Below are positions 5,267-23,661 of a DNA stretch of 28,534 nt, piece after piece; the first letter of the stretch is position 1, and every line of letters begins with the position of its first letter. Made by a program: the position numbers and the translations under genes. Source of the DNA: an uncultured Atribacterota bacterium (GTDB lineage Bacteria > Atribacterota > Phoenicimicrobiia > Phoenicimicrobiales > Stramentimicrobiaceae); NCBI GenBank assembly GCA_964458635.1, contig CAYWJZ010000004.1, positions 1-28,534 on the forward strand. The letters run 5' to 3'. The notes under the pieces were generated by a model. That model did not search any database, had not been told where the DNA came from, and worked only from the letters and a program-made list of their open reading frames with translations.

Positions 5267-5378
5267 AGAAAATATTTAAGCAATAAAGCAAATAAGCCGG
5301 TTTTCTGGCAAAATATGTAAATCTTAGATTGCATAAGTTATTTAAATTCAATATCCTGATAGAAGGAATTTTAAATAT

Positions 5379-6644
5379 ATGGTGATATCTTTAACGGAAA
5401 AAAATAGTTTTGATGTAGCAGTAATAGGAGGAGGGCCTGCCGGAATGATGGCAGCCGGCCGTGCTGCCCGGATGGGGAGCAAAGTTGTTTTGATTGAGAA
5501 AAATGACTATCTGGGGAAAAAGCTATTAATTACCGGTAAAGGCCGTTGTAATTTTACCCATTATGAGTTTGACAGAAGCAAAATTACTGAAAAATTTGGT
5601 AAAAAAGGTCGCTTTTTATACGGAGCCTTAGAACATTTTGGTGTTTCGGATGTACTGAAATTTTTTCAATCCCGCGGATTGAGATGGAAAGTTGAACGCG
5701 GTAATCGGGTTTTTCCGGATGGGGCAGATGCCAGGGATATCCTGAAAATACTAATTGAATATCTCGAAGAAGGAAAAGTGAGCATATATTGTAATTCCAA
5801 AGTTATTGACATAAACAGGCAGAATAATCTGGGAAAAATTGAGATAATACTTACGGAGCAGAAAATATTTTCTAAGAAAATTATTTTATGCACTGGAGGA
5901 AAATCATATCCACAAACCGGCTCAACAGGTGATGGCTACATCTGGGCAAAAAAAATGGGACATACCATTATTCCACCTTTGCCGGCATTGAATCCGATTA
6001 AGACTTGCGAAACATGGGTTCGGGAATTACAGGGTTTGACCTTAAAAAATGTCTTACTACAGTTATATCAAAATGGCAAAAAAAAAGATGAACGTTTTGG
6101 TGAAATGCTTTTTACTCACTTTGGGATTAGTGGTCCCATTGTGATGGATATGAGCAAACATGTTGGTTGCCTGTTAAAAAAGGGGAATGTAAAATTCTGG
6201 TTGGATTTAAAGCCTGCCCTGGATTTTAAGAAGTTGGATGATAGAATCCAGCGTGATTTTCGGGAGTTCAAAGGAAAGATTTTCAAAAATTCTTTAAAAA
6301 AATTACTTCCCAGCTCTTTAATAGGAGTAATTATTAAACTATCCGGAATAAATAGCGAGAAAAAAGTTGATTATATCTCTAAAGAGGAAAGAAATCGCTT
6401 GGTCCATCTTTTTAAGGAACTTGAATTAACACCGACCGAATTACTGGGATATCAATGGTCTGTAGTTACCTCTGGGGGGATAGCTTTAAAAGAAGTTAAC
6501 CCTGATACAATGGCTTCAAAAAAGCTGAGCAATGTCTATTTTGCCGGGGAAATATTAGATTTAGACGGACCCTCAGGCGGCTATAACCTGCAGATATGCT
6601 GGAGTACCGGCTATCTTGCCGGAGAAAATGCAGCAAACTGCTAA
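5379..6644 (+). CDS. NAD(P)/FAD-dependent oxidoreductase, HI0933/YhiN family
   Basis: VIGGGPAGMMAA, GKKLLITGKGRCN, TGGKSYPQTGSTGDGY, GEMLFTHFGISGP, VTSGG, YFAGEILDLDGPSGGYNLQ. Confidence 0.9.
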   Translation: MVISLTEKNSFDVAVIGGGPAGMMAAGRAARMGSKVVLIEKNDYLGKKLLITGKGRCNFTHYEFDRSKITEKFGKKGRFLYGALEHFGVSDVLKFFQSRGLRWKVERGNRVFPDGADARDILKILIEYLEEGKVSIYCNSKVIDINRQNNLGKIEIILTEQKIFSKKIILCTGGKSYPQTGSTGDGYIWAKKMGHTIIPPLPALNPIKTCETWVRELQGLTLKNVLLQLYQNGKKKDERFGEMLFTHFGISGPIVMDMSKHVGCLLKKGNVKFWLDLKPALDFKKLDDRIQRDFREFKGKIFKNSLKKLLPSSLIGVIIKLSGINSEKKVDYISKEERNRLVHLFKELELTPTELLGYQWSVVTSGGIALKEVNPDTMASKKLSNVYFAGEILDLDGPSGGYNLQICWSTGYLAGENAANC

Positions 6645-6777
6645 TATTAAGTTATTTATAAATTATTTTATATTTTTAATTTTTTTGATAAGATAACAAT
6701 AAATTTCTGTTGTTAGTATTAGGAATAAAATATAAGTCAAGATTAAGATTTTAAATTAATGAAAAAAGAGGTGTTTC

Positions 6778-7392
6778 ATGGCAGAAAAGAGTGAGCATTT
6801 ACCTACTATAAAGTTAAAGCGTTATCTTTTTTTCTTCTTAGTATTTATAGTTTATTTGATACCTATTATTGTTGTATTTATAAATGGATATGAAAGTTTA
6901 CTGCAATTATTGCCCCGCATAGCTGCATTAACCGGGATTTCTTCCCTTTTTGTAGCGATTTTGCTGAGTTTACTGGTCAGACAAAGCAGGCAAATCTTTG
7001 GTGTAGGTTATCTTAAAATCCATCATTATTTTTCAATTATTGGCTTGGTCTTAATTACTTCACACCCTGTTATTATGGCAATAGACTTTGGTACTACCAG
7101 TCTCTTTATTCCTGACTTCAGTTCCTGGAATTCATTTCTGGCTAATGCAGGTCGACCAGCATTGTACTTGATATATGTAGCCGCAATTGCCGCTTTATTG
7201 CGAAGAAATATTGCAAAATACTGGAGATATTTGCATGGTTTGCTCTATCCTGCTTTTATTTTTGGGGCTATCCATGGTATGCTTTCAGGAAGTGATATGA
7301 AAAATGATATTCTCTATATATTTTTTATTGGCCTGATAATTGCGGTTACGATTGCTTTTTTCTTTAAAAGATATTTAAATTTTAAAAAATAA
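6778..7392 (+). CDS. Stand-alone ferric reductase-like transmembrane (heme b) protein
   Basis: About 6 TM helices with paired His residues in helices (IHH...SHP; WRYLH.L.Y...HG), typical of the ferric reductase/MsrQ membrane domain. No FAD/NAD-binding domain follows. Confidence 0.7.
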   Translation: MAEKSEHLPTIKLKRYLFFFLVFIVYLIPIIVVFINGYESLLQLLPRIAALTGISSLFVAILLSLLVRQSRQIFGVGYLKIHHYFSIIGLVLITSHPVIMAIDFGTTSLFIPDFSSWNSFLANAGRPALYLIYVAAIAALLRRNIAKYWRYLHGLLYPAFIFGAIHGMLSGSDMKNDILYIFFIGLIIAVTIAFFFKRYLNFKK

Positions 7393-7460
7393 ACATAAAG
7401 GACAGTGTAAACCGACAAAAAAGAAACTGAAATTCTTTGTGTTAATAAAAAGGATGAACA

Positions 7461-8144
7461 ATGCTAACCTTTAACCCAATCTATTTTCTCTTGATTGTTC
7501 CGGCCTTATTGGGATGGTTTGCCCAGTGGCGTGTTCGACAAATTTATTCTAAGTATCTAAAAATACCGAATAAAAAGAAGATAAAGGGCACTGAAGTTGC
7601 TGAAGCTTTTTTTTCTCACCATGGTTTGAATATACCAGTATTGCAGACCAAGAAATTCATGGTTAACTATTATAACCCTCAAAGCAAAACATTGCATTTA
7701 TGTGAACAAGTTGCTGAACATTTTTCAATTACTTCAATGGGTATTGTTGCCCATGAAGTAGAACATGCAGCCCAGGACCATCAGGGTTGTCGGTTTATGG
7801 TCTTAAGAAATAAGATGGCAAGGTCGTTAGCCGTAATGGGTCAATTCAGTCCTTTGCTGTTTATGTGGGGAATATTTTTCAGAAATGCAATTTTTATTTA
7901 TTTAGGTGTCATACTATTATTTGGCATGACTGCTTTTGCACTGATATCTTTGCCCGTGGAATTAAATGCCAGTAACAGAGCAATGAAAACATTAAAAAAG
8001 ATGGAAATTGCTGATCAGGAAGAAATTGAAATGGTCTCTGTGGTTTTGCGTAATGCTGCTCTGACCTATTTTGCCGGAGCAGCGCAGAGGGTCGGGACTT
8101 TTCTGTTTATTGTAATGATATTTTTCATGTCCTATCAGAGGTAA
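7461..8144 (+). CDS. YugP-like membrane zinc metallopeptidase
   Basis: AQWRV...YSKY, NYYNP, VAHEVEHAAQ (HExxH), LPVELNASNRA, LRNAALTY. Confidence 0.8.
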   Translation: MLTFNPIYFLLIVPALLGWFAQWRVRQIYSKYLKIPNKKKIKGTEVAEAFFSHHGLNIPVLQTKKFMVNYYNPQSKTLHLCEQVAEHFSITSMGIVAHEVEHAAQDHQGCRFMVLRNKMARSLAVMGQFSPLLFMWGIFFRNAIFIYLGVILLFGMTAFALISLPVELNASNRAMKTLKKMEIADQEEIEMVSVVLRNAALTYFAGAAQRVGTFLFIVMIFFMSYQR

Positions 8145-8242
8145 TTGGCAATAATTATACTGTCTGTAGTAAAATATATAAGAAAGCCTGTAAATATGTT
8201 CCAACGAAGAATATAATTATTTGTATGCTAAAAAGAAAAGAA

Positions 8243-8262
8243 ATTTACTTGATTAAGTAAAT
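8243..8262. promoter_or_regulatory. Inverted repeat, possible operator upstream of nrdJ
   Basis: ATTTACTT (8243-8250), GATT, AAGTAAAT (8255-8262). The context is AT-rich, so the support is weak. Confidence 0.3.
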
Positions 8263-8263
8263 A

Positions 8264-10627
8264 ATGAAAGAGGGATTTGTTGTTAAAATGTTAAAAGTAA
8301 TTAAACGCAATAATACCATACAATATTTTGATCAAAATAAAATTATCAATGCCATCACCCAGGCCATGCGGGAAACGGTCAAGGGGGTTGACCGAGATCT
8401 TTCTACCAGTATTGCAGAAAAAATCGAAAAAGATTTAAAGAATTCTCGGGAGAGTGTAACGGTAGCCGATATCCAGGAACGGGTAGAAACTGAACTAATG
8501 AATAGTGAAAGAAAGGATGTTGCCAAGGTCTATATTCTCTACCGGGAGCAGCGTGATAAGTTAAGAGATATAAAACCAAAAGACAATAAGTTATTGACAG
8601 ATGAATTTATTAGTCAATATAAACATTTGCCCAATCCATTCCCAACTCAGTTAGGACATTTCGTATATTACCGTACTTATTCCAGGTGGCTCCCTTTGGA
8701 AAAAAGGAGAGAGTATTGGTGGGAGACGGTTAGAAGGGCAGTGGAATTTAATTGCAACCTGGTAAAAACCAGCCAACGGGAAGCAGAAACTCTTTACGAT
8801 AATGTTTTTCATCTTAAACAGTTTTTAGCCGGCAGAACACTTTGGACCGGGGGAACAGATGTTAGCTCAAAATATCCCATGGCAAACTTTAATTGCAGCT
8901 TTACTGTTTTAGATAAATTCAGCACATTTAAAGATCTGTTTTATCTGTTAATGATTGGTTCCGGAGTAGGGGTAAGAGTCCTAAAAACTGATGTGCAAAA
9001 ATTACCTAAAATAAGAACGAACATTAAAATCATTCACGAAGCCTACGCTCCGATACCCAAAGATAAAAGGGAGGATTTAACCAGCATTACCTTCCAGAAA
9101 GATATAGCCCACATTGTTGTAGGAGATAGTAAGGAAGGATGGGTTCAATCTCTGGACTATTATCTGAGCATTTTGTCTAAGAAGGAATATCGGCAGATTA
9201 AAACAATTATTTTTAATTATAATCATGTGAGGCCAAAAGGAGAGAAGTTAAAAACTTTTGGGGGGACTGCCTCTGGTTATGAAAGTCTGGAAAGAATGTT
9301 TTCCAAGATTGACAAGATTGTAAAGAATAACTGTTTTGGTTATCTAAAAAAATTGAGAGCTGTTGATTGTATGGATATTGCCAACATTATCGGCCAGAAT
9401 GTGGTTGTGGGAGGAGTAAGGAGAACCAGTGAAGTTGTCTTGTTTGATAAAGATGATCAGGATATATTGAATGCCAAAAATAATTTATATGAACAGATTG
9501 ACGGTAAATGGGTGAAAAATGAAGAAATTGACTATCGGGAAATGAGTAATAACAGTATTTATTATACATCCAAGCCATCTCGGGAACAACTTTCCTGGCA
9601 TGTGCAACAGATGAGATACAGCGGGGAGCCAGGCTTTATGAATGCTGAAGCTGCTGCTAAAAGAAGACCGCATTTAGAAGGCGCCAATCCCTGTATGGAG
9701 GTATTACTGGATAGGGAGCAGATGTGCAATTTAACAACGGTAAATGTTATGGGGTTTGTAATGGACGGTAAATTGAACGAAAAAGAACTATTTGAAGCAC
9801 AACGTCTTTCTGTGAGAGCAGGAATTAGAATGACTTTTCTGGATTTAGAGTTAGATCAATGGGATATCAAGCAGAAACGAGACAGACTGGTAGGCTGCAG
9901 CTTAACCGGATGGCAGGATATGGTTAATGCCACCGGCTTATCTGATGAGGAACAAAAAAAACTAAGAAAAAAATTAAGTGATGTTGCCCATAAAGAAGCC
10001 GAATTTTATGCTAGCAAGGTGGGTGTAAACCCGCCACTTCTGGTTACTACAGTAAAACCGGAAGGGACCCTTTCACAATTACCGACTGTTTCCAGTGGTG
10101 TTCACTATTCCCATTCGCCATATTTTATCAGAAGAGTTCGAATTAATGCCAATGACCCACTACTTAAAGTTTGTCAGGAGCTAGGATATGATATCAAGCC
10201 GGAAAATGGACAAACAGAGGAAAATTGTAGAACGAAAGTGATTTCTTTCCCATGCAGTGCACCGGAAGGCAAAACAAAAAATGATGTTTCAGCTATCCAA
10301 CAGCTGGAAAATTATCGGTCATTTCAAAAAGAATATACTGACCATAATACTTCAATTACCGTTCATGTAAGAAATAATGAATGGGAAGAAGTGGAGGAAT
10401 GGCTTTGGAACAATTGGGATGACGTTGTAGCAGTCAGCTTTGTATCACTCGATGACAGCTTCTATGCCCAGATGCCCTATGAGGCCATAAGCAAAGAAGA
10501 ATTCGAAAAAAGAGTGGAGAATATGATTCATTTTATCCCGTCTCTGATTTCTAAATACGAGAAAGAAGAAAATTCTATTGATCCCGGAGATGAATCATGT
10601 ACGAATGGTGTTTGCCCCATCAGGTAA
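8264..10627 (+). CDS. nrdJ: Adenosylcobalamin-dependent (class II) ribonucleotide reductase, RTPR-like, with an N-terminal ATP cone
   Basis: ATP cone (VIKRN....FD..KI..AI...IQERVE..LM....VAKVYILYR), RTYSRW, AGRTLW.GG, NCSF, GGVRRTS, NPCME (thiyl Cys), CNLT, KPEGTLSQL and a C-terminal CTNGVCPIR dithiol tail. The true start may be the ATG at 8288. Confidence 0.9.
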   Translation: MKEGFVVKMLKVIKRNNTIQYFDQNKIINAITQAMRETVKGVDRDLSTSIAEKIEKDLKNSRESVTVADIQERVETELMNSERKDVAKVYILYREQRDKLRDIKPKDNKLLTDEFISQYKHLPNPFPTQLGHFVYYRTYSRWLPLEKRREYWWETVRRAVEFNCNLVKTSQREAETLYDNVFHLKQFLAGRTLWTGGTDVSSKYPMANFNCSFTVLDKFSTFKDLFYLLMIGSGVGVRVLKTDVQKLPKIRTNIKIIHEAYAPIPKDKREDLTSITFQKDIAHIVVGDSKEGWVQSLDYYLSILSKKEYRQIKTIIFNYNHVRPKGEKLKTFGGTASGYESLERMFSKIDKIVKNNCFGYLKKLRAVDCMDIANIIGQNVVVGGVRRTSEVVLFDKDDQDILNAKNNLYEQIDGKWVKNEEIDYREMSNNSIYYTSKPSREQLSWHVQQMRYSGEPGFMNAEAAAKRRPHLEGANPCMEVLLDREQMCNLTTVNVMGFVMDGKLNEKELFEAQRLSVRAGIRMTFLDLELDQWDIKQKRDRLVGCSLTGWQDMVNATGLSDEEQKKLRKKLSDVAHKEAEFYASKVGVNPPLLVTTVKPEGTLSQLPTVSSGVHYSHSPYFIRRVRINANDPLLKVCQELGYDIKPENGQTEENCRTKVISFPCSAPEGKTKNDVSAIQQLENYRSFQKEYTDHNTSITVHVRNNEWEEVEEWLWNNWDDVVAVSFVSLDDSFYAQMPYEAISKEEFEKRVENMIHFIPSLISKYEKEENSIDPGDESCTNGVCPIR

Positions 10628-13544: not shown

Positions 13545-13573
13545 TTGACATGAACTTACTTTTATGCTAAATT
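13545..13573 (+). promoter_or_regulatory. Promoter of the aro leader/operon
   Basis: TTGACA (13545-13550), a 17-nt spacer containing an extended -10 TG (13565-13566), and TAAATT (13568-13573). Confidence 0.7.
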
Positions 13574-13609: not shown

Positions 13610-13699
13610 ATGTTACTAAGGAAACAGAGCCAGCAAATATTTAATTTTAACTATTATTATTTTTATTTTATTGGCGATGTTTATGCCTTAGTATCATAA
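13610..13699 (+). CDS. Phe/Tyr-rich attenuator leader peptide (29 aa)
   Basis: SD AAGAGGA (13594-13600), ATG at 13610, TAA at 13697-13699. Translation: MLLRKQSQQIFNFNYYYFYFIGDVYALVS. Eight of codons 11-20 are Phe or Tyr. Confidence 0.85.
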   Translation: MLLRKQSQQIFNFNYYYFYFIGDVYALVS

Positions 13700-13775: not shown

Positions 13776-13814
13776 AAAGGGCTATAGGTTTTTTATTACC
13801 TATAGCCCTTTTTT
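13776..13814 (+). terminator. Intrinsic terminator of the aro leader (E:F hairpin)
   Basis: AAAGGGCTATAGGT (13776-13789) pairs perfectly with ACCTATAGCCCTTT (13798-13811). A T6 tract at 13809-13814 is followed by AGTTTTT. Confidence 0.9.
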
Positions 13815-13856
13815 AGTTTTTAATTTTTTTAATCCATATAACAGGAGGTTAGGAAT

Positions 13857-14261
13857 GTGGCGATAAGAGGAATAAGAGGAGCAACGACAGTAAAGAAAAA
13901 TGATAAAAAATCTATCTTAGCAAAGACTAAAGAATTATTAATTGCCTTACAGGAAGCTAATAGTTTTGACACCAAGGATATTGCAAGCATCTTCTTTAGC
14001 ATGACCCGTGACCTAAATGCTGCTTTTCCAGCTGCGGCAGCTCGTCAACTGGGCTGGCAAAAAGTCCCTCTTTTCGGGGTTCAGGAAGCAGATATAGTAG
14101 ATACGGATGGACTGAAAAGATGTATTAGGATTCTTGTTCAGATTAATACTGAGAAATCTCAAGATGAGATAAACCATTGCTACTTGCATGAAGCAATGAA
14201 ATTAAGAAAAGATTTAACCAATAAAAAGGAGATTAAAAATGATTGTTGTAATGGATGGTAA
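13857..14261 (+). CDS. aroH: Chorismate mutase, AroH class (Bacillus type)
   Basis: IRGIRGATTV, FFSMTRDLNAAFPA.AAR, VPLF, RCIRIL, YLHEA..LR. GTG start with SD AGGAGG at 13843-13848. Confidence 0.92.
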   Translation: MAIRGIRGATTVKKNDKKSILAKTKELLIALQEANSFDTKDIASIFFSMTRDLNAAFPAAAARQLGWQKVPLFGVQEADIVDTDGLKRCIRILVQINTEKSQDEINHCYLHEAMKLRKDLTNKKEIKNDCCNGW

Positions 14262-15273
14262 GTCAAATGAGAGTCAGATTGACAAGATAACTGAGAAGTT
14301 AGAAAGTATGAAATTTGACCTGCAAATTATCAGAGGAAAGAATAAAATTGTCATTGGTATCATCGGGGATACCAGAAAATTAACCACTTTTCCCTTCCAT
14401 TCTTATCCGGGGGTCATAGATGTTCTCAGGGTCTTGAAACCATACAAACTGGCCAGCAGAGAATTCAAGGAGCTTTCTACTATTGTCAAAATTAATGATG
14501 TTTCTATTGGTGGGAAGGAACCTGTAGTTATGGCAGGTCCCTGTGCGATAGAAAGCGAAGAGCAGATCTATGAAATTGCTCGGAGAGTAAGCAGTGTGGG
14601 GGTTAAAGTACTGAGAGGAGGTGCCTTCAAACCCAGGACTTCACCTTACAGTTTCCAGGGTCTGGGCAAAAAAGGACTCAAAATAATGAGTGAAGCGGCA
14701 AAAAAATACGGACTATTGGTAATTACTGAAGTGATGTCTATTGAACAGATTGATATTATTGCACCTTATGCTGACATCTTTCAAATAGGAGCCAGAAACA
14801 TGCAAAATTTTATGTTGTTAAAAGAGATAGGGAAGACCAGAAAACCAGCAATGTTAAAGAGAGGTTTGTCCTCAACTATTGAAGAATGGCTATTATCTGC
14901 GGAGTATATTTTATCCGGAGGAAATAAAAAAGTAATCCTCTGTGAAAGAGGAATTAGAACATTTGAAAATTATACCCGGAATACCCTCGATCTAAGTGCT
15001 GTTCCTGCAATTAAAGAATTAAGTCACTTACCGATAATTGTTGATCCCAGCCATGCAACCGGAAGAAAAGAGCTGATCGGTCCCATGTCTAAAGCGGCAA
15101 TCGCTGCCGGAGCTGATGGTCTTATTATTGAAACACACCCCCATCCGGAGGCATCAATGAGTGACGGTGCGCAATCGCTGGATCTGGATCATTTTGAGAA
15201 TCTGATATCAGAAGTAGAACAAGTGGCTCATGCGGTTGGTAAGACCTTGAATCACAGTTATGCTTCTGTTTAG
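14239..15273 (+). CDS. aroF: DAHP synthase type I-beta with an N-terminal ACT-like regulatory domain, copy 1 (Ile31)
   Basis: MIVVM...GIIGD regulatory domain, AGPCAIES, GGAFKPRTSPYSFQG, QIGARNMQNF, LCERGIRTFE, DPSHATG, IETHP. Confidence 0.93.
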   Translation: MIVVMDGKSNESQIDKITEKLESMKFDLQIIRGKNKIVIGIIGDTRKLTTFPFHSYPGVIDVLRVLKPYKLASREFKELSTIVKINDVSIGGKEPVVMAGPCAIESEEQIYEIARRVSSVGVKVLRGGAFKPRTSPYSFQGLGKKGLKIMSEAAKKYGLLVITEVMSIEQIDIIAPYADIFQIGARNMQNFMLLKEIGKTRKPAMLKRGLSSTIEEWLLSAEYILSGGNKKVILCERGIRTFENYTRNTLDLSAVPAIKELSHLPIIVDPSHATGRKELIGPMSKAAIAAGADGLIIETHPHPEASMSDGAQSLDLDHFENLISEVEQVAHAVGKTLNHSYASV

Positions 15274-16371
15274 AAAGGAATATTCAGTTAAGAAAATAAT
15301 CAATAATAAGGAGATTAAAAATGATTGTTGTAATGGACGGACATTCTGATGATAAGAATTTGGATAAAATAACTGAAAAATTAAAAAGCATGGGATTCGA
15401 ATTACAGTTAAGCAAAGGAAAGAATAAAATTGTCATTGGTATCATCGGGGATACCAGAAAATTAACCACTTTTCCCTTCCATTCTTATCCGGGGGTCATA
15501 GATGTTCTCAGGGTCTTGAAACCATACAAACTGGCCAGCAGAGAATTCAAGGAGCTTTCTACTATTGTCAAAATTAATGATGTTTCTATTGGTGGGAAGG
15601 AACCTGTAGTTATGGCAGGTCCCTGTGCGATAGAAAGCGAAGAGCAGATCTATGAAATTGCTCGGAGAGTAAGCAGTGTGGGGGTTAAAGTACTGAGAGG
15701 AGGTGCCTTCAAACCCAGGACTTCACCTTACAGTTTCCAGGGTCTGGGCAAAAAAGGACTCAAAATAATGAGTGAAGCGGCAAAAAAATACGGACTATTG
15801 GTAATTACTGAAGTGATGTCTATTGAACAGATTGATATTATTGCACCTTATGCTGACATCTTTCAAATAGGAGCCAGAAACATGCAAAATTTTATGTTGT
15901 TAAAAGAGATAGGGAAGACCAGAAAACCAGCAATGTTAAAGAGAGGTTTGTCCTCAACTATTGAAGAATGGCTATTATCTGCGGAGTATATTTTATCCGG
16001 AGGAAATAAAAAAGTAATCCTCTGTGAAAGAGGAATTAGAACATTTGAAAATTATACCCGGAATACCCTCGATCTAAGTGCTGTTCCTGCAATTAAAGAA
16101 TTAAGTCACTTACCGATAATTGTTGATCCCAGCCATGCAACCGGAAGAAAAGAGCTGATCGGTCCCATGTCTAAAGCGGCAATCGCTGCCGGAGCTGATG
16201 GTCTTATTATTGAAACACACCCCCATCCGGAGGCATCAATGAGTGACGGTGCGCAATCGCTGGATCTGGATCATTTTGAGAATCTGATATCAGAAGTAGA
16301 ACAAGTGGCTCATGCGGTTGGTAAGACCTTGAATCACAGTTATGCTTCTGTTTAGAAAGGAATATTCAGTT
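14334..16371 (+). repeat. Tandem direct repeat: 14334-15289 is identical to 15416-16371 (956 nt, period 1082)
   Basis: Line-by-line comparison found no mismatch over the 956 nt. The first mismatches are at 14333/15415 and 15290/16372. Confidence 0.95.
15321..16355 (+). CDS. aroF: DAHP synthase type I-beta with an N-terminal ACT-like regulatory domain, copy 2 (Ser31)
   Basis: Identical to copy 1 from residue 33 to 344, with 12 substitutions in residues 8-32. It has its own SD (AAGGAG). Confidence 0.9.
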   Translation: MIVVMDGHSDDKNLDKITEKLKSMGFELQLSKGKNKIVIGIIGDTRKLTTFPFHSYPGVIDVLRVLKPYKLASREFKELSTIVKINDVSIGGKEPVVMAGPCAIESEEQIYEIARRVSSVGVKVLRGGAFKPRTSPYSFQGLGKKGLKIMSEAAKKYGLLVITEVMSIEQIDIIAPYADIFQIGARNMQNFMLLKEIGKTRKPAMLKRGLSSTIEEWLLSAEYILSGGNKKVILCERGIRTFENYTRNTLDLSAVPAIKELSHLPIIVDPSHATGRKELIGPMSKAAIAAGADGLIIETHPHPEASMSDGAQSLDLDHFENLISEVEQVAHAVGKTLNHSYASV

Positions 16372-17665
16372 GGATATAGCTATAGAGGGTATAAAAGACA
16401 GAAAGGTTAAAGGTATAATCACAGTACCCGGTGATAAGTCAATTACCCATCGTGCAATTATCCTGGCTTCAATTGCTCGGGGAGAATCCAGGGTCCATAA
16501 TTATCTGGATAGTTTGGATTGTAAAAATACTTTAAAGTGTATGCAGGCACTGGGTATTAAAATTGAAAAAATAAATAATACTCTTTTAAAAATAAAAGGG
16601 AAAGGCCTTCATGGATTACAGGCCCCAAAAGATGTTCTTGATGTGGGTAATTCCGGAACAACTATGAGATTATTATCCGGATTATTAAGCGGACAGGATT
16701 TTTGTAGCGTAATAGATGGAGATGATTCTATACGAAGAAGGCCAATGAAAAGAATTATTCAACCATTATCCTTAATGAATGCCCGGATAAAAGGAGTATT
16801 TAATATTAATTTCGCTCCATTAAGCATCATTGGAAGCAAACTACAGGGAATTGAGTATACTTTGCCGGTAGCAAGTGCACAGGTCAAGTCTGCCATTTTG
16901 TTAGCCGGTCTTTATGCAGAAGGAGATACAATTATCAGGGAGCCGGAAGTTACCAGGGACCACACGGAGAGGATGTTAATCTCAATGCAGGCAAATATTC
17001 AATCTTCTCCCGATCATAAGATAAAAATAAATTCTGATAAAGTCTTAACAGGAATTGATATTGATATTCCCGGAGATATTTCATCTGCCGCTTATTTCCT
17101 GGCAGCGGGATGTGCTAGAGAAGGTTCTGAGGTAACAATTAACAATGTCGGTATTAATCCGACTCGTATTGGATTTATTGATGTGTTAGAAAAAATGGGT
17201 TCACAGTTGGAATTGGTAAATCAAACAAATATTTCCAATGAGCCCAGGGCAGATATTAAAATTAAGGGTTCTTTGTTGAAGGGAATACATATTGATAAAG
17301 ATATGATTGCCGGTATTATCGATGAATTGCCCTTGGTTGCAGTGATTGCGACACAAGCTAGAGGAAAAACAGTGGTTAAAGATGCCCGGGAACTACGGGT
17401 AAAAGAAACTGATCGTATCAAAGCAATTGTAGATAGTTTATCGAGAATGGGGGCAAAGATATCAGAAAGAGATGATGGTTTTGAAGTGATTGGTCCAACA
17501 GAATTAACCGGAAGTGCGGTAAATAGCTACCATGATCATCGTATTGCCATGTCCCTGGCAATAGCAGCTTCTTATGCCGAGGGCAAAACAATAATTCAGG
17601 AAACCCAGTGTATGGATGTTTCTTATCCGGAATTTATGAAAGTTTATTATAAAATATTTCATTAA
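16370..17665 (+). CDS. aroA: 3-phosphoshikimate 1-carboxyvinyltransferase (EPSP synthase)
   Basis: PGDKSITHRA, GNSGTTMR, ASAQVKSA, TRDHTE, PGDISSA, RVKETDR, DHRIAM. TTG start. Confidence 0.96.
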   Translation: MDIAIEGIKDRKVKGIITVPGDKSITHRAIILASIARGESRVHNYLDSLDCKNTLKCMQALGIKIEKINNTLLKIKGKGLHGLQAPKDVLDVGNSGTTMRLLSGLLSGQDFCSVIDGDDSIRRRPMKRIIQPLSLMNARIKGVFNINFAPLSIIGSKLQGIEYTLPVASAQVKSAILLAGLYAEGDTIIREPEVTRDHTERMLISMQANIQSSPDHKIKINSDKVLTGIDIDIPGDISSAAYFLAAGCAREGSEVTINNVGINPTRIGFIDVLEKMGSQLELVNQTNISNEPRADIKIKGSLLKGIHIDKDMIAGIIDELPLVAVIATQARGKTVVKDARELRVKETDRIKAIVDSLSRMGAKISERDDGFEVIGPTELTGSAVNSYHDHRIAMSLAIAASYAEGKTIIQETQCMDVSYPEFMKVYYKIFH

Positions 17666-17684
17666 CAATATAAGGAGAAAAATT

Positions 17685-18554
17685 ATGGGCATTAAAACTT
17701 CAATTATTGGATTATTGGGGGAACATATAGAAAAAAGCCTTTCTCCTTTTATACATCAGCATTTTATTCGTTACTATTCTTTGAATTACCATTATTATCC
17801 TTTTCAAATAGCCGTTGACGATTTACGGGAGGCAATATTAGGAGTAAAAGCGTTAGGTATCCGGGGGGTAAATATTACTATTCCTTTTAAAGAAAGATCA
17901 ATGGAATTTATGGATTTCATTGATCCCCAGTCAGCAAAAATTGGAGCGATCAATACTGTAGTGAGTCATAATAATAGGTTGTATGGCTACAATACAGACC
18001 GTATTGGATTTAAACTGCCCCTGGTGAAAGATAGCAGAGTTGAACTTGCTGATAAGAAGGCCGTTGTTTTGGGAGCCGGAGGTGCAGCGAAGGCTGTGGT
18101 TTTTTCTCTGGCAGAAGAGGGTTGTTCCGGAATATCAATTTTCAACAGAAGCCTGCAGAATGCCCAGCAGATAAAAAAGAATTTTGAAGCCCTGTTTCCT
18201 CATTGTACGATAAAAGTATTTTCATTTCACGATAAAAACATGCAGAAAGAAATTAATGAAGCAGATCTGATTATTAATACTACACCACTGGGTAGCTGGT
18301 ATTATCCCGAAGAAAATCCTTTGCCTGAATATATTAAATTACCATTAAAATTATTTGTTTATGACCTTATTTATAATCCAGACAGAACTCCTTTGCTAAA
18401 AAAAGCAGAAAAGAATGGTAATAAAACAATAAACGGAAAAGCAATGCTGATATACCAGGCAGCCGAGAGTTTCTATTTATGGACCGATATTCGTCCTGAT
18501 CAGAAGATCATGACTCATGTATTGGATGAAATAGCGAAAAAGCTTTATATTTAA
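17685..18554 (+). CDS. aroE: Shikimate dehydrogenase
   Basis: SLSP..H, GVNITIPFK, AINT, GYNTD, LGAGGAA, NR, IINTTPLG, DLIYNP, ML.YQA. Confidence 0.95.
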   Translation: MGIKTSIIGLLGEHIEKSLSPFIHQHFIRYYSLNYHYYPFQIAVDDLREAILGVKALGIRGVNITIPFKERSMEFMDFIDPQSAKIGAINTVVSHNNRLYGYNTDRIGFKLPLVKDSRVELADKKAVVLGAGGAAKAVVFSLAEEGCSGISIFNRSLQNAQQIKKNFEALFPHCTIKVFSFHDKNMQKEINEADLIINTTPLGSWYYPEENPLPEYIKLPLKLFVYDLIYNPDRTPLLKKAEKNGNKTINGKAMLIYQAAESFYLWTDIRPDQKIMTHVLDEIAKKLYI

Positions 18555-18573
18555 TTTTAATGTATGGGAGGAT

Positions 18574-19752
18574 ATGCGGAAGATGTTGCGTTTTTTAGAT
18601 GCAGGTGAATCACATGGAAAATGTTTGTTGGGTATTATCGAGGGTTTTCCGGGTGGTTTCACTTTAGATAGTGAGGCTATAAACAAGGAACTGCAAAGAA
18701 GGCAGGGTGGATATGGCAGGGGAAATAGGATGAATATTGAAAGGGATCGTATTGATATTTTATCGGGAGTTATCTCTGGTAAGACCATAGGGAGTCCGAT
18801 AGGGTTGATGATTAAAAATAAGGATTGGGAGAATCAAAAAATAGAAGATCGGGAAAATTTAACAGTTCCAAGACCCGGACACGCTGATTTGGCCGGTGTA
18901 TTAAAATATAATCTGAATGATTACCGATCCATTTTAGAAAGGGCAAGTGCCCGTAAAACAGCCATGCGAGTAGCTATCGGTTCGGTTGCCGGGGAATTGT
19001 TAAAATATTTCTCTATTTTTACCTATAGTCATGTTGTTCGTATTGGCCAAATATCAGCCGAAAATAGAATAGTGAGCCTGAAGAAAGAACGAGAAAATAA
19101 TATTAAAAAAAAGATTAACCAATCATCAGTCTACTGTTTGGATTCAAATATTTCTGAAAAAATGTCTCAGGAGATAGACCGGGCTAAAAATGATGGAGAT
19201 TCATTGGGTGGCTTATTTGAAATAATAGTGCAGAATCTTCCTCCTGGTTTGGGAAGTCATGTTTTTTGGGATAGAAGAATTGATACCCGTATTGCGGGAG
19301 CTATTATGAGCATTCCCAGCGTTAAAGCAGTAGAAATTGGTGAGGGAATCAAAGGTTCAGAAAATAGAGGTTCTCAAGTTCAGGATGCTATTTATTATAA
19401 AGACGGACAGAATAAAAAATATAACAGAGTAGATTATTTTCGGGAAAAGAATTGGGCCGGAGGAATAGAAGGAGGTATAACCAACGGAGAAGATGTGATA
19501 GTTCGTGTTTATGTAAAACCCATTCCTACCTTACGCAAACCTCTTTCTTCGGTTGATTTAATAAGTAAAAAAGAAACAAAGGCAAATTATCAGCGATCTG
19601 ATGTTTGTGCAGTTCCGGCTGCAAGCGTTATTGGAGAAGCTGTGGTTAATTGGGAATTAGCAGCTGCCTTTATAGAGAAATTTGCCGGAGATTCTATTTG
19701 TGAAGTCGAATCCAATTATGGACATTATCTGGAGAGGCTAAAAAATTGTTAA
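18574..19752 (+). CDS. aroC: Chorismate synthase
   Basis: LRFLDAGESHG, RRQGGYGRG, PRPGHAD, ERASAR, GDSLGG, AGGIEGGITNG, KPIPTL, RSDVCAVP. The true start is probably the ATG at 18583, because SD GGGAGG is only 2 nt from 18574. Confidence 0.96.
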   Translation: MRKMLRFLDAGESHGKCLLGIIEGFPGGFTLDSEAINKELQRRQGGYGRGNRMNIERDRIDILSGVISGKTIGSPIGLMIKNKDWENQKIEDRENLTVPRPGHADLAGVLKYNLNDYRSILERASARKTAMRVAIGSVAGELLKYFSIFTYSHVVRIGQISAENRIVSLKKERENNIKKKINQSSVYCLDSNISEKMSQEIDRAKNDGDSLGGLFEIIVQNLPPGLGSHVFWDRRIDTRIAGAIMSIPSVKAVEIGEGIKGSENRGSQVQDAIYYKDGQNKKYNRVDYFREKNWAGGIEGGITNGEDVIVRVYVKPIPTLRKPLSSVDLISKKETKANYQRSDVCAVPAASVIGEAVVNWELAAAFIEKFAGDSICEVESNYGHYLERLKNC

Positions 19753-20273
19753 AGAGAAATATTTTTATTACCGGTTTTATGGGTACAGGCAAAAGCACTA
19801 TTGCCCACACCTTATCAAACAAAATGGGGAAAAAATGTATAGACATAGATAGTATTATTGAAAATAGGGAAGGAAAGCCCATCGTAAATATTTTTAATGA
19901 AGAGGGTGAAAGTTATTTTCGCAAATTGGAGAAGGAAGTCTTAAAGGAAATTCTAAAGAAAAAAAACTTGATTGTTGCTACCGGCGGAGGGACTTTGCTT
20001 GATGAAGAAAATTTTCAATTAGCTCAAAAAAATGGAATTATTGTTTTGTTAAAGGCAAGACCGGAAGTGATTTTTAATAGATTAAAAAAAGAAAACACCC
20101 GTCCTTTGTTATCAGGGGAAAACATGTTGGAAAAAATTATTTGTTTAATGAATAAGAGAAAAAAGCAATATAGTAGATTTACCAATTGTATAGATACATC
20201 AGATATTCCAGTTGAAGAAGTGGTAAAGAAGGTATTAAAGATTTGTCAGGGAGATGAATATGAAAACAATTGA
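19746..20273 (+). CDS. aroK: Shikimate kinase
   Basis: NIFITGFMGTGKST (P-loop), GESYFRKLE, VATGGG, RPLL. Confidence 0.95.
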   Translation: MLKRNIFITGFMGTGKSTIAHTLSNKMGKKCIDIDSIIENREGKPIVNIFNEEGESYFRKLEKEVLKEILKKKNLIVATGGGTLLDEENFQLAQKNGIIVLLKARPEVIFNRLKKENTRPLLSGENMLEKIICLMNKRKKQYSRFTNCIDTSDIPVEEVVKKVLKICQGDEYENN

Positions 20274-21372
20274 CATGCAATTTGAAAAAAAGTATTACTG
20301 TAAGATGATAATAGGCAATAATATTTTAGCAGACCTTAAAAACAATCTTATCCCTTTATTGCCCGCAAGAGAGGTTATTCTAATTACTAATCCTCTGGTA
20401 AAAAGACTCTATGGTGAACGGTTAGTTTATTCTTTATCCGGAGAAGATATTATCGTAAAAGTCATCGAAGTCCCCGATGGAGAAAAAAATAAGAATATTC
20501 ATGTTGCAGAAAATATATATGACCGACTGTTGGAATTAAAAACGAATCGCTCTACTACACTGATTGCCCTGGGTGGTGGGGTAATTGGAGATCTGGGAGG
20601 GTTTGTCGCTGCAACGTTTATGAGAGGAATTCCCCTGATTCATATCCCCACTACACTTTTAGCGCAGATTGACAGCAGTATCGGAGGAAAAGTAGCGGTG
20701 GATCATCTCAGGGCAAAGAATATTATTGGTAGTTTTTACCAGCCTATTGCCATTTTTACTGACTCTACGGTATTACAAAGCCTGCCGGATATGCATTTAA
20801 AAAATGGACTTGTAGAAGCGATCAAAATTGCTATTATTGGTTCTCCCTCATTTTTCCACTGGCTGGAGGAGAATATTGCTGGTTTATTACAAAAAGAGAG
20901 GGGAGCACTGGATATCCTGGTAAATCAGGCAATACAATTAAAAAGAGATATTATTCTCCAGGATCCATGGGAAAAAAAACACCGGCATTATTTGAATTTG
21001 GGGCATAGCATCGGTCATGCACTGGAAGCAATTGATAGTTACGAAATGCTAACACATGGTGAAGCGGTAGCAGCAGGGTTATTGCTGGAGGCCAGGTTAG
21101 CCTTTCATCGCAATATTTGCTCAAAAGAAGAGATAATAAAAATTGAAAATATTATTAAGAGATTAGAACTTCCCATGAAAATGGATCTCAGACAGATAAA
21201 TATGGAAAAACTCTGGAATATAATCCAACTTGATAAAAAAAATAAGAACGGAGTCACTCGCTTTGTTTTGCCTGAAAAAATCGGGAAAGTACATTTAGTT
21301 CAACCAATTTTTAAGGAAGATGTTGTTCATGTTTTTAATGCTATTTGTGACGGGAAAGAGGTGTTATGGTGA
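20254..21372 (+). CDS. aroB: 3-dehydroquinate synthase
   Basis: PDGEKNK, ALGGGVIGDLGGF, PTTLLAQIDSSIGGK, KNIIGSFYQP, EAIK, LNLGHSIGHA, HGEAVA, DKKN. Confidence 0.96.
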   Translation: MNMKTIDMQFEKKYYCKMIIGNNILADLKNNLIPLLPAREVILITNPLVKRLYGERLVYSLSGEDIIVKVIEVPDGEKNKNIHVAENIYDRLLELKTNRSTTLIALGGGVIGDLGGFVAATFMRGIPLIHIPTTLLAQIDSSIGGKVAVDHLRAKNIIGSFYQPIAIFTDSTVLQSLPDMHLKNGLVEAIKIAIIGSPSFFHWLEENIAGLLQKERGALDILVNQAIQLKRDIILQDPWEKKHRHYLNLGHSIGHALEAIDSYEMLTHGEAVAAGLLLEARLAFHRNICSKEEIIKIENIIKRLELPMKMDLRQINMEKLWNIIQLDKKNKNGVTRFVLPEKIGKVHLVQPIFKEDVVHVFNAICDGKEVLW

Positions 21373-21851
21373 AGATAGGTGTTATTAATGGGCCTAATTT
21401 AAATCAACTGGGCAAAAGGAAAGAGGAACATTACGGTACTATTACTTTGGCAGAGATTAATAATAGATTGGAGAAATATGCACTTGAAATAGGTATTAAG
21501 CTGGAGTTTATTCAGTCAAATTATGAAGGAAAAATCATTGATAGTATCCAATCATTTTCAAATGAGGTAAATGGGATTATTATTAATCCGGGAGCTTTTA
21601 CTCATTATAGCTATGCCATAAGGGATGCCCTGGAAGATTGCTCTATACCGGTTATTGAAGTTCACTTATCCAATATTTTTTCACGAGAGGATTTTCGGGA
21701 AAAATCAGTTACCGTTCCTGTTTGTGACGGACAGATTGTCGGAATGGGTTATTATGGGTATCTTATGGCTATAAAAGGACTTCAATATCTGATTAAAGTG
21801 AAAAATTCCATCAATACCAATAAGGAGGTCTTTGATGAGCGAAGAAAGTGA
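21366..21851 (+). CDS. aroQ: Type II 3-dehydroquinate dehydratase
   Basis: NGPNLNQLGKR...YG, QSNYEG, INPGAFTHYS.AIRDA, EVHLSNI..RE.FR. Confidence 0.95.
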   Translation: MVKIGVINGPNLNQLGKRKEEHYGTITLAEINNRLEKYALEIGIKLEFIQSNYEGKIIDSIQSFSNEVNGIIINPGAFTHYSYAIRDALEDCSIPVIEVHLSNIFSREDFREKSVTVPVCDGQIVGMGYYGYLMAIKGLQYLIKVKNSINTNKEVFDERRK

Positions 21852-22716
21852 CTTTAAAAAAATAACCATTATTGGTACCGGTCTAATCGGGGGGTCGATT
21901 GGTCTAGCTTTGAAAAAAAGTGCTTATTCCGGCCAAATTTTTGGAATTGATAGAAAAGTAATAATTGCAAAAGCAATTCATTGTGGTGCAATCGATCAGG
22001 GGAGTGAAAAGATCGAAGAAGGTGTAAAAAATGCAGATATGATTGTTCTGGCTACTCCGGTTAGAGATATCATTGTATCAATGAACTTGATTAAACCTTA
22101 TTTATCAAAAAATTCTCTGGTTACCGATACAGGAAGCACCAAGACAGATATTATGGAGGAGGCAGAAAATCTATTTTCAGATAAACATGATTTTATAGGT
22201 GGTCATCCTATGGCCGGTTTGGAAAGAGGCGGAATAGAATATGCCCATCCTGATTTGTTTACAAAAAAGCCTTATATCGTGATTCCCAGCAAAAAAAACA
22301 CCCCTTCAGCAGAATTGAAGATGTCTTCTTTTGTCCAGCGCATCGGAGCTATTGAAATAAAAATGGAAGTGATTGAACATGATCGTGTTGTTGCTTTAAT
22401 AAGCCATCTGCCACAATTGATTGCGGTGTCGATGACTAATATGCTGGGGAGCCTGGTTGAAGAAAAGAATAATCCGGATTATTTTAGAATAGGTGGTAAT
22501 GTATTTAATGAAATGACCCGGGTTGCCAGCAGCCCTTTTACCATATGGAATGATATTTATCAAACCAATGCGAAATGGACGATTAAGGCTATCGAAGAGT
22601 TAGAAGAAATGTTAAACAATATTAAGCAAAAAATTACCAATAATCCTGCCGAATTAGAAAACGATTTTTCAAAAGCAAGGCATTTAAAAGAAAAAATATT
22701 AAAAATAAATAATTAG
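21832..22716 (+). CDS. tyrA: Prephenate dehydrogenase without an ACT domain
   Basis: GTGLIGGS, TDTGSTK, GGHPMAG.E, HDRVVA.ISHLP, MTRVA.S....W.DI. Confidence 0.93.
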   Translation: MMSEESDFKKITIIGTGLIGGSIGLALKKSAYSGQIFGIDRKVIIAKAIHCGAIDQGSEKIEEGVKNADMIVLATPVRDIIVSMNLIKPYLSKNSLVTDTGSTKTDIMEEAENLFSDKHDFIGGHPMAGLERGGIEYAHPDLFTKKPYIVIPSKKNTPSAELKMSSFVQRIGAIEIKMEVIEHDRVVALISHLPQLIAVSMTNMLGSLVEEKNNPDYFRIGGNVFNEMTRVASSPFTIWNDIYQTNAKWTIKAIEELEEMLNNIKQKITNNPAELENDFSKARHLKEKILKINN

Positions 22717-22758
22717 AAATACAGAAAAAATATATTATTAGAAAAGGGGTATAAATCA

Positions 22759-23661
22759 ATGGATGAAAGTGTCGACGAGTATGGAAAGAAAAAAACGGTT
22801 GCTTTACAGGGAGAAATTGGTTCATTCAGTGAGATGGCTGCTCTGCAATATTTTAGTTCTTCTATTGATATAATCTCTTGTAATAGTTTTGAAGAGGTTG
22901 GTGAAAAAGTCAAATCCGGTGAAGCGGAATATGCCATTTTGCCTATAGAAAACTCCCAGACCGGAGGGATTAATCAAGTGCATGACCTATTGTTAAAGGA
23001 AAGTTTGTTTGCAATCGGAGAGGTAGTCTTAAAAATAAAACACTGTTTGATAGCACATAATGATATTAGGATAGAGCAAATTGAGAAGATTTTTTCCCAT
23101 CCACAGGCATTAGCTCAATGTGAAAGATATTTATTAAAGCATTTTCCTGATTGTCAAATCATCCCGGTATATGATACTGCCGGAAGCATAAAACAGATTA
23201 AGGAATCAAGTGACTTGAAGTCAGCAGGTATTGCCAGCAGCAGAGCTGCAAGTTATTACAAGATGAAAATTGTGGATAGCGGGATTGAAGATAACCCTAA
23301 TAATTATACAAGATTTCTGGTATTTTCCTCACAAATAAGGCACCGCCAACATAATAACAAAACATCTATTATTTTTGCCGTAGTGAGTGTCCCGGGTGCG
23401 ATATATAAGTGTCTAAAAGAATTTGCTGTTCGAGATATTAATTTAAGTCGGCTGGAATCCAGGCCAAGTAAGGTAAAGCCCTGGGAATATGTTTTTTATA
23501 TGGATTTTGAGAAAGGATTACAGGAAAAAGTTTCACAGGATGCTTTGCAGTCATTAAAAAAATACACCACTTTCATGAAAATTATTGGAACATACCAATC
23601 CCAATCAAGTGTACTTGCTTCTGCTAAAAAACATCTACAGGATATGCGTAAAGATGAGTGA
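22759..23661 (+). CDS. pheA: Prephenate dehydratase with a C-terminal ACT domain, not fused to chorismate mutase
   Basis: VALQG..GSFS, PIENS..G, SHPQALAQC, DTAGS, NYTRF, KTSIIF, INLSRLESRP, EYVFY.D. Confidence 0.94.
   Translation: MDESVDEYGKKKTVALQGEIGSFSEMAALQYFSSSIDIISCNSFEEVGEKVKSGEAEYAILPIENSQTGGINQVHDLLLKESLFAIGEVVLKIKHCLIAHNDIRIEQIEKIFSHPQALAQCERYLLKHFPDCQIIPVYDTAGSIKQIKESSDLKSAGIASSRAASYYKMKIVDSGIEDNPNNYTRFLVFSSQIRHRQHNNKTSIIFAVVSVPGAIYKCLKEFAVRDINLSRLESRPSKVKPWEYVFYMDFEKGLQEKVSQDALQSLKKYTTFMKIIGTYQSQSSVLASAKKHLQDMRKDE

Follow-up and report, generated by a model that had tools for sequence, protein, structure and literature searches.

We have analyzed a stretch of 28,534 nucleotides (nt) from an uncultured Atribacterota bacterium, hereafter the window, which is a complete contig (CAYWJZ010000004.1) of the metagenome-assembled genome (MAG) G000 (1.13 Mb, 160 contigs, 75.5% complete). 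The sequence is also present in public runs from microbial-mat and hypersaline-lake metagenomes. The window carries an operon of aromatic amino acid biosynthesis with, according to Pfam, the order aroH, aroF, aroF, aroA, aroE, aroC, aroK, aroB, aroQ, tyrA, pheA, an arrangement kept throughout the taxonomic order among the Atribacterota relatives. Both tyrA and pheA are therefore in the same operon as aroF, and trp genes are absent from it. The subject of this work is the tandem of two aroF genes, each coding for a DAHP synthase (DAHPS) of 344 amino acids (Table 1). There is no terminator between the two genes, so that co-transcription is expected.

Table 1. Features of the aroF tandem and of its operon in the window (positions on the forward strand; ORF, open reading frame; AF2, AlphaFold2).
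Feature	Position	Strand	Basis
aroF copy 1, type I-beta DAHP synthase with N-terminal ACT/ferredoxin-like domain, Ile31 type (Q29-I30-I31), candidate Phe-sensitive isoenzyme	14239..15273	+	ORF, Pfam, alignment
aroF copy 2, same enzyme, Ser31 type (Q29-L30-S31), candidate Tyr-sensitive isoenzyme	15321..16355	+	ORF, Pfam
Divergent patch, copy 1: gene nt 18-95, codons 6-32 (beta1-alpha1 loop, alpha1, beta2)	14256..14333	+	Comparison with copy 2; AF2 model
Divergent patch, copy 2	15338..15415	+	Comparison with copy 1
956-nt identical tract, first copy: codons 33-344, stop codon, 16 nt tail	14334..15289	+	Equals 15416-16371
956-nt identical tract, second copy	15416..16371	+	Equals 14334-15289
47-nt spacer: shared 16-nt tail, short unique junction, copy of the sequence preceding copy 1 (aroH 3' end and Shine-Dalgarno)	15274..15320	+	Sequence comparison
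Promoter-like site TTGACA, 17 nt, TG-TAAATT, before the leader	13545..13573	+	10/12 matches, extended -10 TG; consensus match only
Leader peptide MLLRKQSQQIFNFNYYYFYFIGDVYALVS, 29 codons, aromatic run 4 Phe + 4 Tyr	13610..13699	+	Read from sequence
Attenuator intrinsic terminator, 14-bp stem and T tract, 35 nt 5' of aroH	13776..13821	+	Sequence
aroH, AroH-type chorismate mutase; 3' end extends 23 nt into aroF copy 1	13857..14261	+	Pfam CM_1, E 1e-43
Rest of the operon: aroA, aroE, aroC, aroK, aroB, aroQ, tyrA (prephenate dehydrogenase), pheA (prephenate dehydratase)	16370..23661	+	Pfam

Compared base by base, the two copies differ at 30 nt, every one of them within gene nt 18-95. The divergence of this patch is about 38% at the nucleotide level, versus none in the 956-nt tract that follows it, and upstream there are only 2 mismatches across the 41 nt that span the ribosome-binding site together with the first 17 nt of the coding sequence. 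If 30 differences were scattered uniformly over the 1035 nt of the gene, the probability that all would land in one 78-nt span is about 8e-32. At the protein level this translates into 12 differences (residues 8, 10-14, 22, 25, 27 and 30-32). Residues 29-33 are QIIRG in the first copy and QLSKG in the second, so that Ser31 is found in copy 2 only and copy 1 has Ile31. Direct comparison thus bore out the first-pass annotation of this DNA, which had described residues 33-344 as identical, these 12 differences as confined to residues 8-32, and all of the divergence as lying within the sensor domain. A short-read assembler may give both copies of a repeat one consensus, and the exact figure of zero differences in 956 nt is in this sense not certifiable, but the contrast with the roughly 38% of the patch is independent of such a collapse. 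Neither of the two proteins was found by an exact-protein look-up in public assemblies.

The tandem itself might be an assembly artefact, in which a single aroF gene, present with different alleles of its N-terminal patch in two strains, was strung into a false pair. In a de Bruijn graph the two patches would form a bubble between shared nodes of 30 and 956 nt, and the Logan contigs carrying patch A and patch B do have equivalent starting and end points. Besides, G000 is a fragmented MAG, and the depth of the shared tract over that of its flanks in the Logan contigs is equivocal, only about 1.5x in run X1 and about 2x in run X2. However, an allelic bubble cannot make the junction of tail, spacer and Shine-Dalgarno sequence, and this junction is seen in the window, in a sister species, in a Logan contig and as 31-mers in two public runs. 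The sister species (G001) belongs to the same genus, was separately assembled and has orthologous genes 93-99% identical. Its order is copy 1 (QIIRG), a homologous 87-nt spacer, the N-terminus of copy 2 (QLSKG), a scaffold gap of 100 N at the point where the assembly failed to resolve the repeat, the last bases of the gene and aroA. The Logan contig, from run X5 of a third study, links the G001-type spacer to patch B. In the window, the 63 nt at 15262-15324 are made up wholly of junction-specific 31-mers, and sampled words of this set were present in two runs of different studies, X1 and X6. A Logan contig from X1 stops exactly at 16371, where the repeat is expected to branch. Within the shared tract, the Logan contigs show minor variants that match alleles of G001, indicating a mix of species and not differences between paralogs; paralog-specific variants were seen in none of these contigs, which however can hide them. 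Fully diverged and unambiguously assembled copies are moreover found in the Ser31/Ile31 tandems of the genera g5 and g9. The Logan contigs are too fragmented to bridge the repeat and the copy number thus rests on the junction evidence, but the arrangement of the sister species and the junction-specific 31-mers in two public runs indicate that the duplication is real. The aroF tandem is genuine, and an artefact is very improbable, although the exact identity of the barrels could partly be an assembly effect.

Both copies have the domain PF18152 (DAHP synthase ferredoxin-like, DAHP_snth_FXD) at residues 1-67 (E 2e-19 and 7e-20) and the barrel PF00793 (DAHP_synth_1) at residues 82-331 (E 1e-84). 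They align without gaps over residues 1-338 with the Thermotoga maritima DAHPS (1rzm/3pg9; E 3e-117, about 55% identity). Where the window copies read QIIRG and QLSKG this enzyme reads H29-I30-S31-K32-G33, and the gapless alignment with HISKG at 29-33, which the first-pass annotation had stated, was confirmed against the two structures. That annotation placed His29 in the inhibitor site; both copies of the window have Gln29 instead. The residues C102, H272, E298 and D309, which we take to be the metal ligands of the T. maritima enzyme, and the motif KPRTSPYSFQG are intact in both copies and aligned to the same residues in 1rzm. Matches to DAHPS in the PDB had E values from 1e-117 to 1e-87 and those to KDO8P synthases of 1e-26 or weaker, an order that was the same in Foldseek, and type I-alpha DAHPS structures were absent among the 50 PDB matches at E <= 1e-3. 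Every feature that can be read from the sequence assigns both copies to the ACT-regulated type I-beta DAHPS family.

The AF2 model (pLDDT 91.9, and 94-95 across residues 1-40) has its best structural matches in the T. maritima enzyme and its chimera. It places beta1 at residues 2-6, alpha1 at 11-23, beta2 at 27-32 and beta3 at 36-42, followed by a helix at 45-48 and a strand at 59-63. On this model, the differing residues 8 and 10-14 fall in the loop between beta1 and alpha1 and in the first turn of this helix, residues 22 and 25 at the end of alpha1 and in the loop after it, and residues 27 and 30-32 in beta2. In ACT domains the effector site is formed by the beta1-alpha1 loop and the adjoining strand, at the interface of two domains. 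The model therefore suggests that the divergent patch occupies the canonical ACT effector site. For the T. maritima enzyme, contacts of His29 and Ser31 with the hydroxyl of Tyr have been reported. In that enzyme the Tyr sites form where two ACT domains meet, and access to the active site is restricted once Phe or Tyr binds the ACT domain (PMC5493349, PMC5526877).

The age of the patch can be judged from its synonymous sites. Over codons 6-32 the proportion of synonymous differences (pS) was 0.94, i.e., saturated, and that of nonsynonymous differences (pN) 0.26, while both were zero over codons 33-344. The saturation indicates that the patch is old and not the product of recent mutation in a fresh duplicate, and the rapid adaptive divergence of such a duplicate, which we considered as an explanation, was rejected on this ground. 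The first-pass annotation had proposed that the split was reached by changing only the sensor; the order of events appears to be the opposite, with an ancient patch and a remainder made identical secondarily. Between G000 and G001 the barrels differ at 33 of 870 nt (3.8%; synonymous divergence, dS, 0.19), versus 0 of 956 between the G000 paralogs. Since the arrangement is common to both species, homogenisation went on after their split. The patches behave in the opposite manner to the barrel, that of copy 2 being identical in the two species (0/78 nt) and the other differing by 3/78 nt.

The traces of conversion can be followed along the genes. Its boundary lies at nt 95 in G000 and near nt 115 in G001, where copy 2 retains the Ser-type residues E35/V37/I38. 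Both G000 copies have the Ile-type N35 and yet the Ser-type P57, I60, L66 and K93, a mosaic that implies at least two conversion events in opposite directions. At about gene nt 147 there is a T in both G000 copies and a C in both G001 copies. The same gene pair provides an independent case of gene conversion in G009 (locus L024, contig C5), a 98%-complete genome in which the paralogs (6153-7181 and 7339-8367) lie on a 282-kb contig. Here a tract of about 400 nt in the middle of the barrel, approximately gene nt 360-780, is 100% identical between the two genes, and the rest of them is 60-75% identical.

The tandem pairs of G005, G013 and G009, which belong to other genera of the family, have one copy reading E-V/I-S and the other Q-T/M-I at residues 29-31. 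In G005 and G013 the divergence between the two copies extends over the full length of the gene (barrel pS 0.66-0.74). Copy 1 of the window has K8, I14 and I31 in common with the Ile-type genes of these genera, and copy 2 has the H/R8, L14 and S31 of the Ser-type genes. In a tree of the barrels the Ile-type and Ser-type clades were not separated, as would be expected if conversion scrambles the barrels, and the tree cannot be used to date the duplication. All but the patch has most likely been homogenised by recurrent gene conversion or by unequal exchange, the two copies evolving in concert. The simplest reading is that conversion erodes all the differences save those at residues 8-32, which selection would keep apart. 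As a separate observation, the Ile-type copy of 'Candidatus Oleincola secundus' (G005; L025, contig C113, 7824-8831) carries an in-frame TAA near codon 316, where its C-terminus is also shifted; it is a paralog in decay or else a product of misassembly.

The same functional split could have another history. A single Ser31-type gene would have been duplicated recently within the genus, as a unit from the 3' end of aroH to the 5' start of aroA, the upstream copy would have gained a foreign N-terminal segment of Ile31 type, and the barrels would be identical mainly through youth. The spacers point in this direction. That of G001 is made up of the 16-nt tail common to both copies, 5 nt of the start of aroA, a segment resembling the 3' end of aroH and a Shine-Dalgarno sequence, and the one in G000 is without 40 nt found in G001 between two GGAGAT repeats. 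A fragment of the aroA start followed by one like the aroH 3' end is the signature of a tandem duplication junction, and with this composition the spacer reads as a duplication scar, the duplicated unit reaching from the end of aroH as far as the start of aroA. The g5 and g9 pairs have unrelated spacers and a reversed gene order, the shared body is of Ser type at residues 57, 60, 66 and 93, and a barrel tree that leaves Ile and Ser types unseparated would fit as well. However, the structure with the Ile31 copy first and the Ser31 copy second is older than the split of G000 and G001, so that the 3.8% divergence of the orthologues versus 0/956 would still require homogenisation. Neither do the patch boundaries coincide in the two species, the transfer of N35 from the first copy to the second being confined to G000, and in G009 gene conversion is seen directly. 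For these reasons we consider a recent duplication with a foreign segment rather unlikely, and prefer an old pair of sensor patches with concerted evolution of the remainder. The reversed gene order nevertheless indicates a history more complex than simple vertical paralogy; duplication of a whole Ser-Ile pair, followed by loss of its outer members, would explain it.

We have examined how general the two states of residue 31 are. Among 84 ACT-type DAHPS from many phyla, 66 had His29 and 69 had Ser31, and Ile31 was a minority state; H-x-S at residues 29-31 can thus be taken as the family consensus in these alignments. The survey of position 31 that the first-pass annotation had proposed spoke for its reading, as nearly all of the examined genomes with two ACT-type DAHPS combine a Ser31 copy with a hydrophobic-31 copy. 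In Atribacterota, tandem pairs of Ser31 and Ile31 are found in G000, G001, G005, G013 and G009, while G029, G040 and G084 have an H-I-S gene in the operon and a standalone N-I-I gene. G080 combines H-I-S with Q-K-I, and G083 has an N-I-I gene and a second copy without N-terminus. Five genomes of other phyla were selected because residue 31 was hydrophobic in one of their enzymes, and a Ser31 copy was also present in 5/5. These were the cultured Caldicoprobacter algeriensis TH7C1 and the Clostridia MAG ZC4RG12 (both H-P-I with H-I-S), the Bacillota MAG124 (H-L-I with H-L-S), a member of the Sedimentisphaerales (H-I-I with H-V-S) and one of the Fusobacteriota (H-K-V with H-E-S). On a tree of 52 sequences, counting well-supported branches alone, the hydrophobic-31 state requires at least 6 changes; either it arose repeatedly or the partners were repeatedly homogenised.

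Other arrangements of DAHPS genes came up in the same comparison. In G041-G074, from other Atribacterota families, one ACT-type DAHPS is accompanied by a second barrel within an open frame of about 635-650 amino acids that matches residues ~60-340 only and is probably a fusion protein. The Bacillota MAG124 (L164, G087:C101) has a third DAHPS gene at 5207-6013, without the N-terminal ACT domain and immediately upstream of its H-L-S gene.

Leader peptides and neighbouring genes provide clues to the effectors. Within the Atribacterota family f2, the aromatic run of the leader has 5 Phe and 1-2 Tyr before the standalone N-I-I genes (4 genomes), and 1-3 Phe and 4-6 Tyr before the H-I-S genes of the operon (12 genomes); G084 contains genes of both kinds. 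Single H-P-I genes (G018 and G021) have leaders with 6 Phe and 2-3 Tyr. Trp was absent from the leader peptides before the Ile31 genes. In the Bacillota MAG124, pheA (with prephenate dehydratase, ACT and chorismate mutase domains, PDT-ACT-CM) comes directly after the H-L-I gene, and tyrA and aroA come after the H-L-S gene; in Caldicoprobacter tyrA and aroA likewise follow the H-I-S gene. Judged from these comparisons, leader composition and the pheA or tyrA neighbours appear mostly to track residue 31. No T-box or other riboswitch was found near the paired genes of the five genomes of other phyla.

The leader of the window itself is less informative. As the first-pass annotation had noticed, and as the sequence confirms, both aroF genes stand behind a leader with Phe and Tyr codons; their operon makes both amino acids. 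The mixed run does not discriminate, though: the single-copy Ser31 relatives G007 and G011 have the same mixed leader as the window, with 4-5 Phe to 4 Tyr, and we have rejected it as a sign of two isoenzymes for this reason. The leader is conserved, non-aromatic ends included, before aroH or aroF in at least 30 Atribacterota loci. Across two Atribacterota families the ends are kept as MLRKQSQ... and ...GDVYALVS or TDVYALTS (window; L022-L038, L137-L148). An attenuator that simply counts codons would not ordinarily show such conservation, which hints at a role of the peptide sequence as such, e.g., in ribosome arrest. A search of the window against Rfam gave no matching family, and none was matched by the leader peptide element. 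In the single-copy genome G023 the ORF of the leader is apparently frameshifted within its Tyr run relative to the sister G026.

Putting the evidence together, we favor with a probability of about 0.6 a genuine tandem isoenzyme pair that carries two old sensor patches on an otherwise homogenised body, with Tyr as the main effector of the Ser31 copy and Phe as that of the Ile31 copy. As to the effectors, the assignment of Ser31 to Tyr and of Ile31 to Phe is by itself fairly probable on the comparative evidence. This was also the proposal of the first-pass annotation, which finds support in the recurrent pairing, in the leaders and in the pheA and tyrA neighbours but meets discordant cases in two lineages. 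Both enzymes would be made from one attenuated transcript and each tetramer would be built through the barrel. Binding of the effector between the sensor domains of two subunits would close the active sites, as in T. maritima. Tyr would then close copy 2 and Phe copy 1, so that neither product alone would starve the cell of the other, and either end product could stop no more than a part of the entry flux, following the logic of E. coli AroF/AroG. As the barrels form the tetramer and are identical, and the genes are co-transcribed and presumably co-translated, mixed tetramers with hybrid ACT-ACT sites would be likely.

Several facts have to be set against this interpretation. Both copies have Gln29 and not His29. 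The genome G023 (H-I-I in single copy; L014, contig C16) has a Tyr-rich leader upstream of aroH, and in the Sedimentisphaerales the CM-PDT-ACT gene adjoins the S31 copy and not the I31 copy. G014 (L029, contig C11) has two Ser31 copies and is the sole exception to the Ser31/Ile31 pairing in Atribacterota. The contrasts that support the assignment of effectors are few and phylogenetically clustered. To these we must add points already described, namely the leader shared with single-copy relatives, the equivocal depth of the repeat, a barrel identity that the assembler may have exaggerated, and a gene order (Ile31 first) that is the reverse of the one in g5 and g9. Two of the genomes just named have further particularities. 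In G014 the operon is rearranged and its aroF genes lie apart (aroH-aroF(HIS)-aroA-aroC-aroK-aroF(QIS)-aroE-...), and in the Sedimentisphaerales (L165, G088:C1) a gene of the Beta_elim_lyase family (threonine aldolase / tyrosine phenol-lyase family) comes directly after the H-I-I gene.

Some of these facts would also fit a patch that is under selection but tunes another trait, be it the affinity or cooperativity with which one and the same effector is bound, a feedback lost in one of the copies, or the response to another ligand such as Trp or prephenate. Gln29 in place of the consensus His29, the discordant G023 and Sedimentisphaerales and the two Ser31 copies kept by G014 all agree with it. 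However, the leaders before Ile31 genes are enriched in Phe and contain Trp in no case, pheA directly follows the Ile31 gene in MAG124, and the window operon has tyrA and pheA but no trp genes. The change from Ser to Ile, which drops the partner of the hydroxyl, would moreover be the simplest way to disfavor Tyr. We regard another trait as quite unlikely. The pair could also be a redundant duplication for dosage, with neutral leftovers in the patch. Duplicated biosynthetic genes can indeed serve dosage. Yet conversion has wiped every difference outside the effector-site patch, and the patches are kept between species (0/78 and 3/78 nt versus 3.8% in the barrel). The type-specific residues K/H8, I/L14 and I/S31 recur across genera, and the pairing of Ser31 with a hydrophobic residue recurs in several phyla, all of which makes mere dosage hardly credible.

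A wider generalization can be put forward, though only tentatively. Across bacteria, the ACT-regulated type I-beta DAHP synthases may fall into two classes by effector, determined for the most part by residue 31 in combination with residue 14, of which the Ser31 class would sense Tyr and the Ile/Val31 class Phe. The hydrophobic class would be recurrent and kept as the partner of a Ser31 enzyme. In tandem pairs, conversion would keep the barrels interchangeable, allowing mixed tetramers with hybrid ACT-ACT sites and a graded or synergistic control by Phe plus Tyr, and the genus of the window would be the extreme case, with the cassette trimmed to residues 8-32.

The closest known system is the T. 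maritima DAH7PS (TM0343; PDB 1RZM, 1VR6, 3PG9), with the same two Pfam domains, about 55% identity and a Ser31 that copy 2 shares. The gating mechanism is presumably the same, with effector-induced pairing of sensor domains that blocks the active site (PMC5493349, PMC5526877). The difference is that this enzyme was studied as a single one, inhibited by Tyr and more weakly by Phe, whereas the window has two genes, Gln29 in both and Ile31 in copy 1. The E. coli isoenzymes AroF, AroG and AroH (Tyr-, Phe- and Trp-sensitive) follow a like logic, with entry-step enzymes that are each under another aromatic product. They belong however to the type I-alpha subfamily, with an effector site made from an N-terminal extension and barrel inserts, in contrast to the ACT domain and I-beta barrel found here. 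Their genes are dispersed, diverged over the full length and repressed by TyrR/TrpR, whereas the window pair lies in one attenuated operon. The likeness would therefore be one of logic only. To our knowledge, where the feedback on entry-step isoenzymes is textbook matter, the enzymes are those of E. coli and yeast, which are of type I-alpha.

With regard to the mode of evolution, the best parallels are tufA/tufB and the primate L/M opsins, in which conversion spares the spectral-tuning sites. As here, the paralogs are closer to each other than the orthologues of sister species, the mosaic boundaries are sharp, and only the region presumed to carry the functional difference escapes homogenisation. 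What sets the window apart is that the spared segment is a 78-nt effector-site cassette in an allosteric domain. Upstream of the operon, the short ORF rich in regulatory codons, the alternative hairpins and the intrinsic terminator are as in the enterobacterial attenuators of the pheL/pheA type, from which the window leader differs by its mixed Phe/Tyr run, its occurrence in Atribacterota and the conservation of its non-aromatic ends across the order. Our search of the open-access literature found regulation of ACT-type I-beta enzymes described for the T. maritima enzyme only, and returned neither natural Ser31/hydrophobic-31 isoenzyme pairs nor concerted evolution in DAHP synthase genes.

The same pairing exists in the cultured Caldicoprobacter algeriensis, so that the proposed rule is testable without cultures of Atribacterota. 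The locus narrows the candidate determinant of specificity to 12 residues in the stretch 8-32 of a protein that is otherwise the same in the two copies, and the comparative data point to position 31 as the switch, with 14 as its partner, which may be of use in the engineering of feedback-resistant or re-targeted DAHP synthases. The aroF pair would be a clean example of selection holding back gene conversion at an allosteric site.

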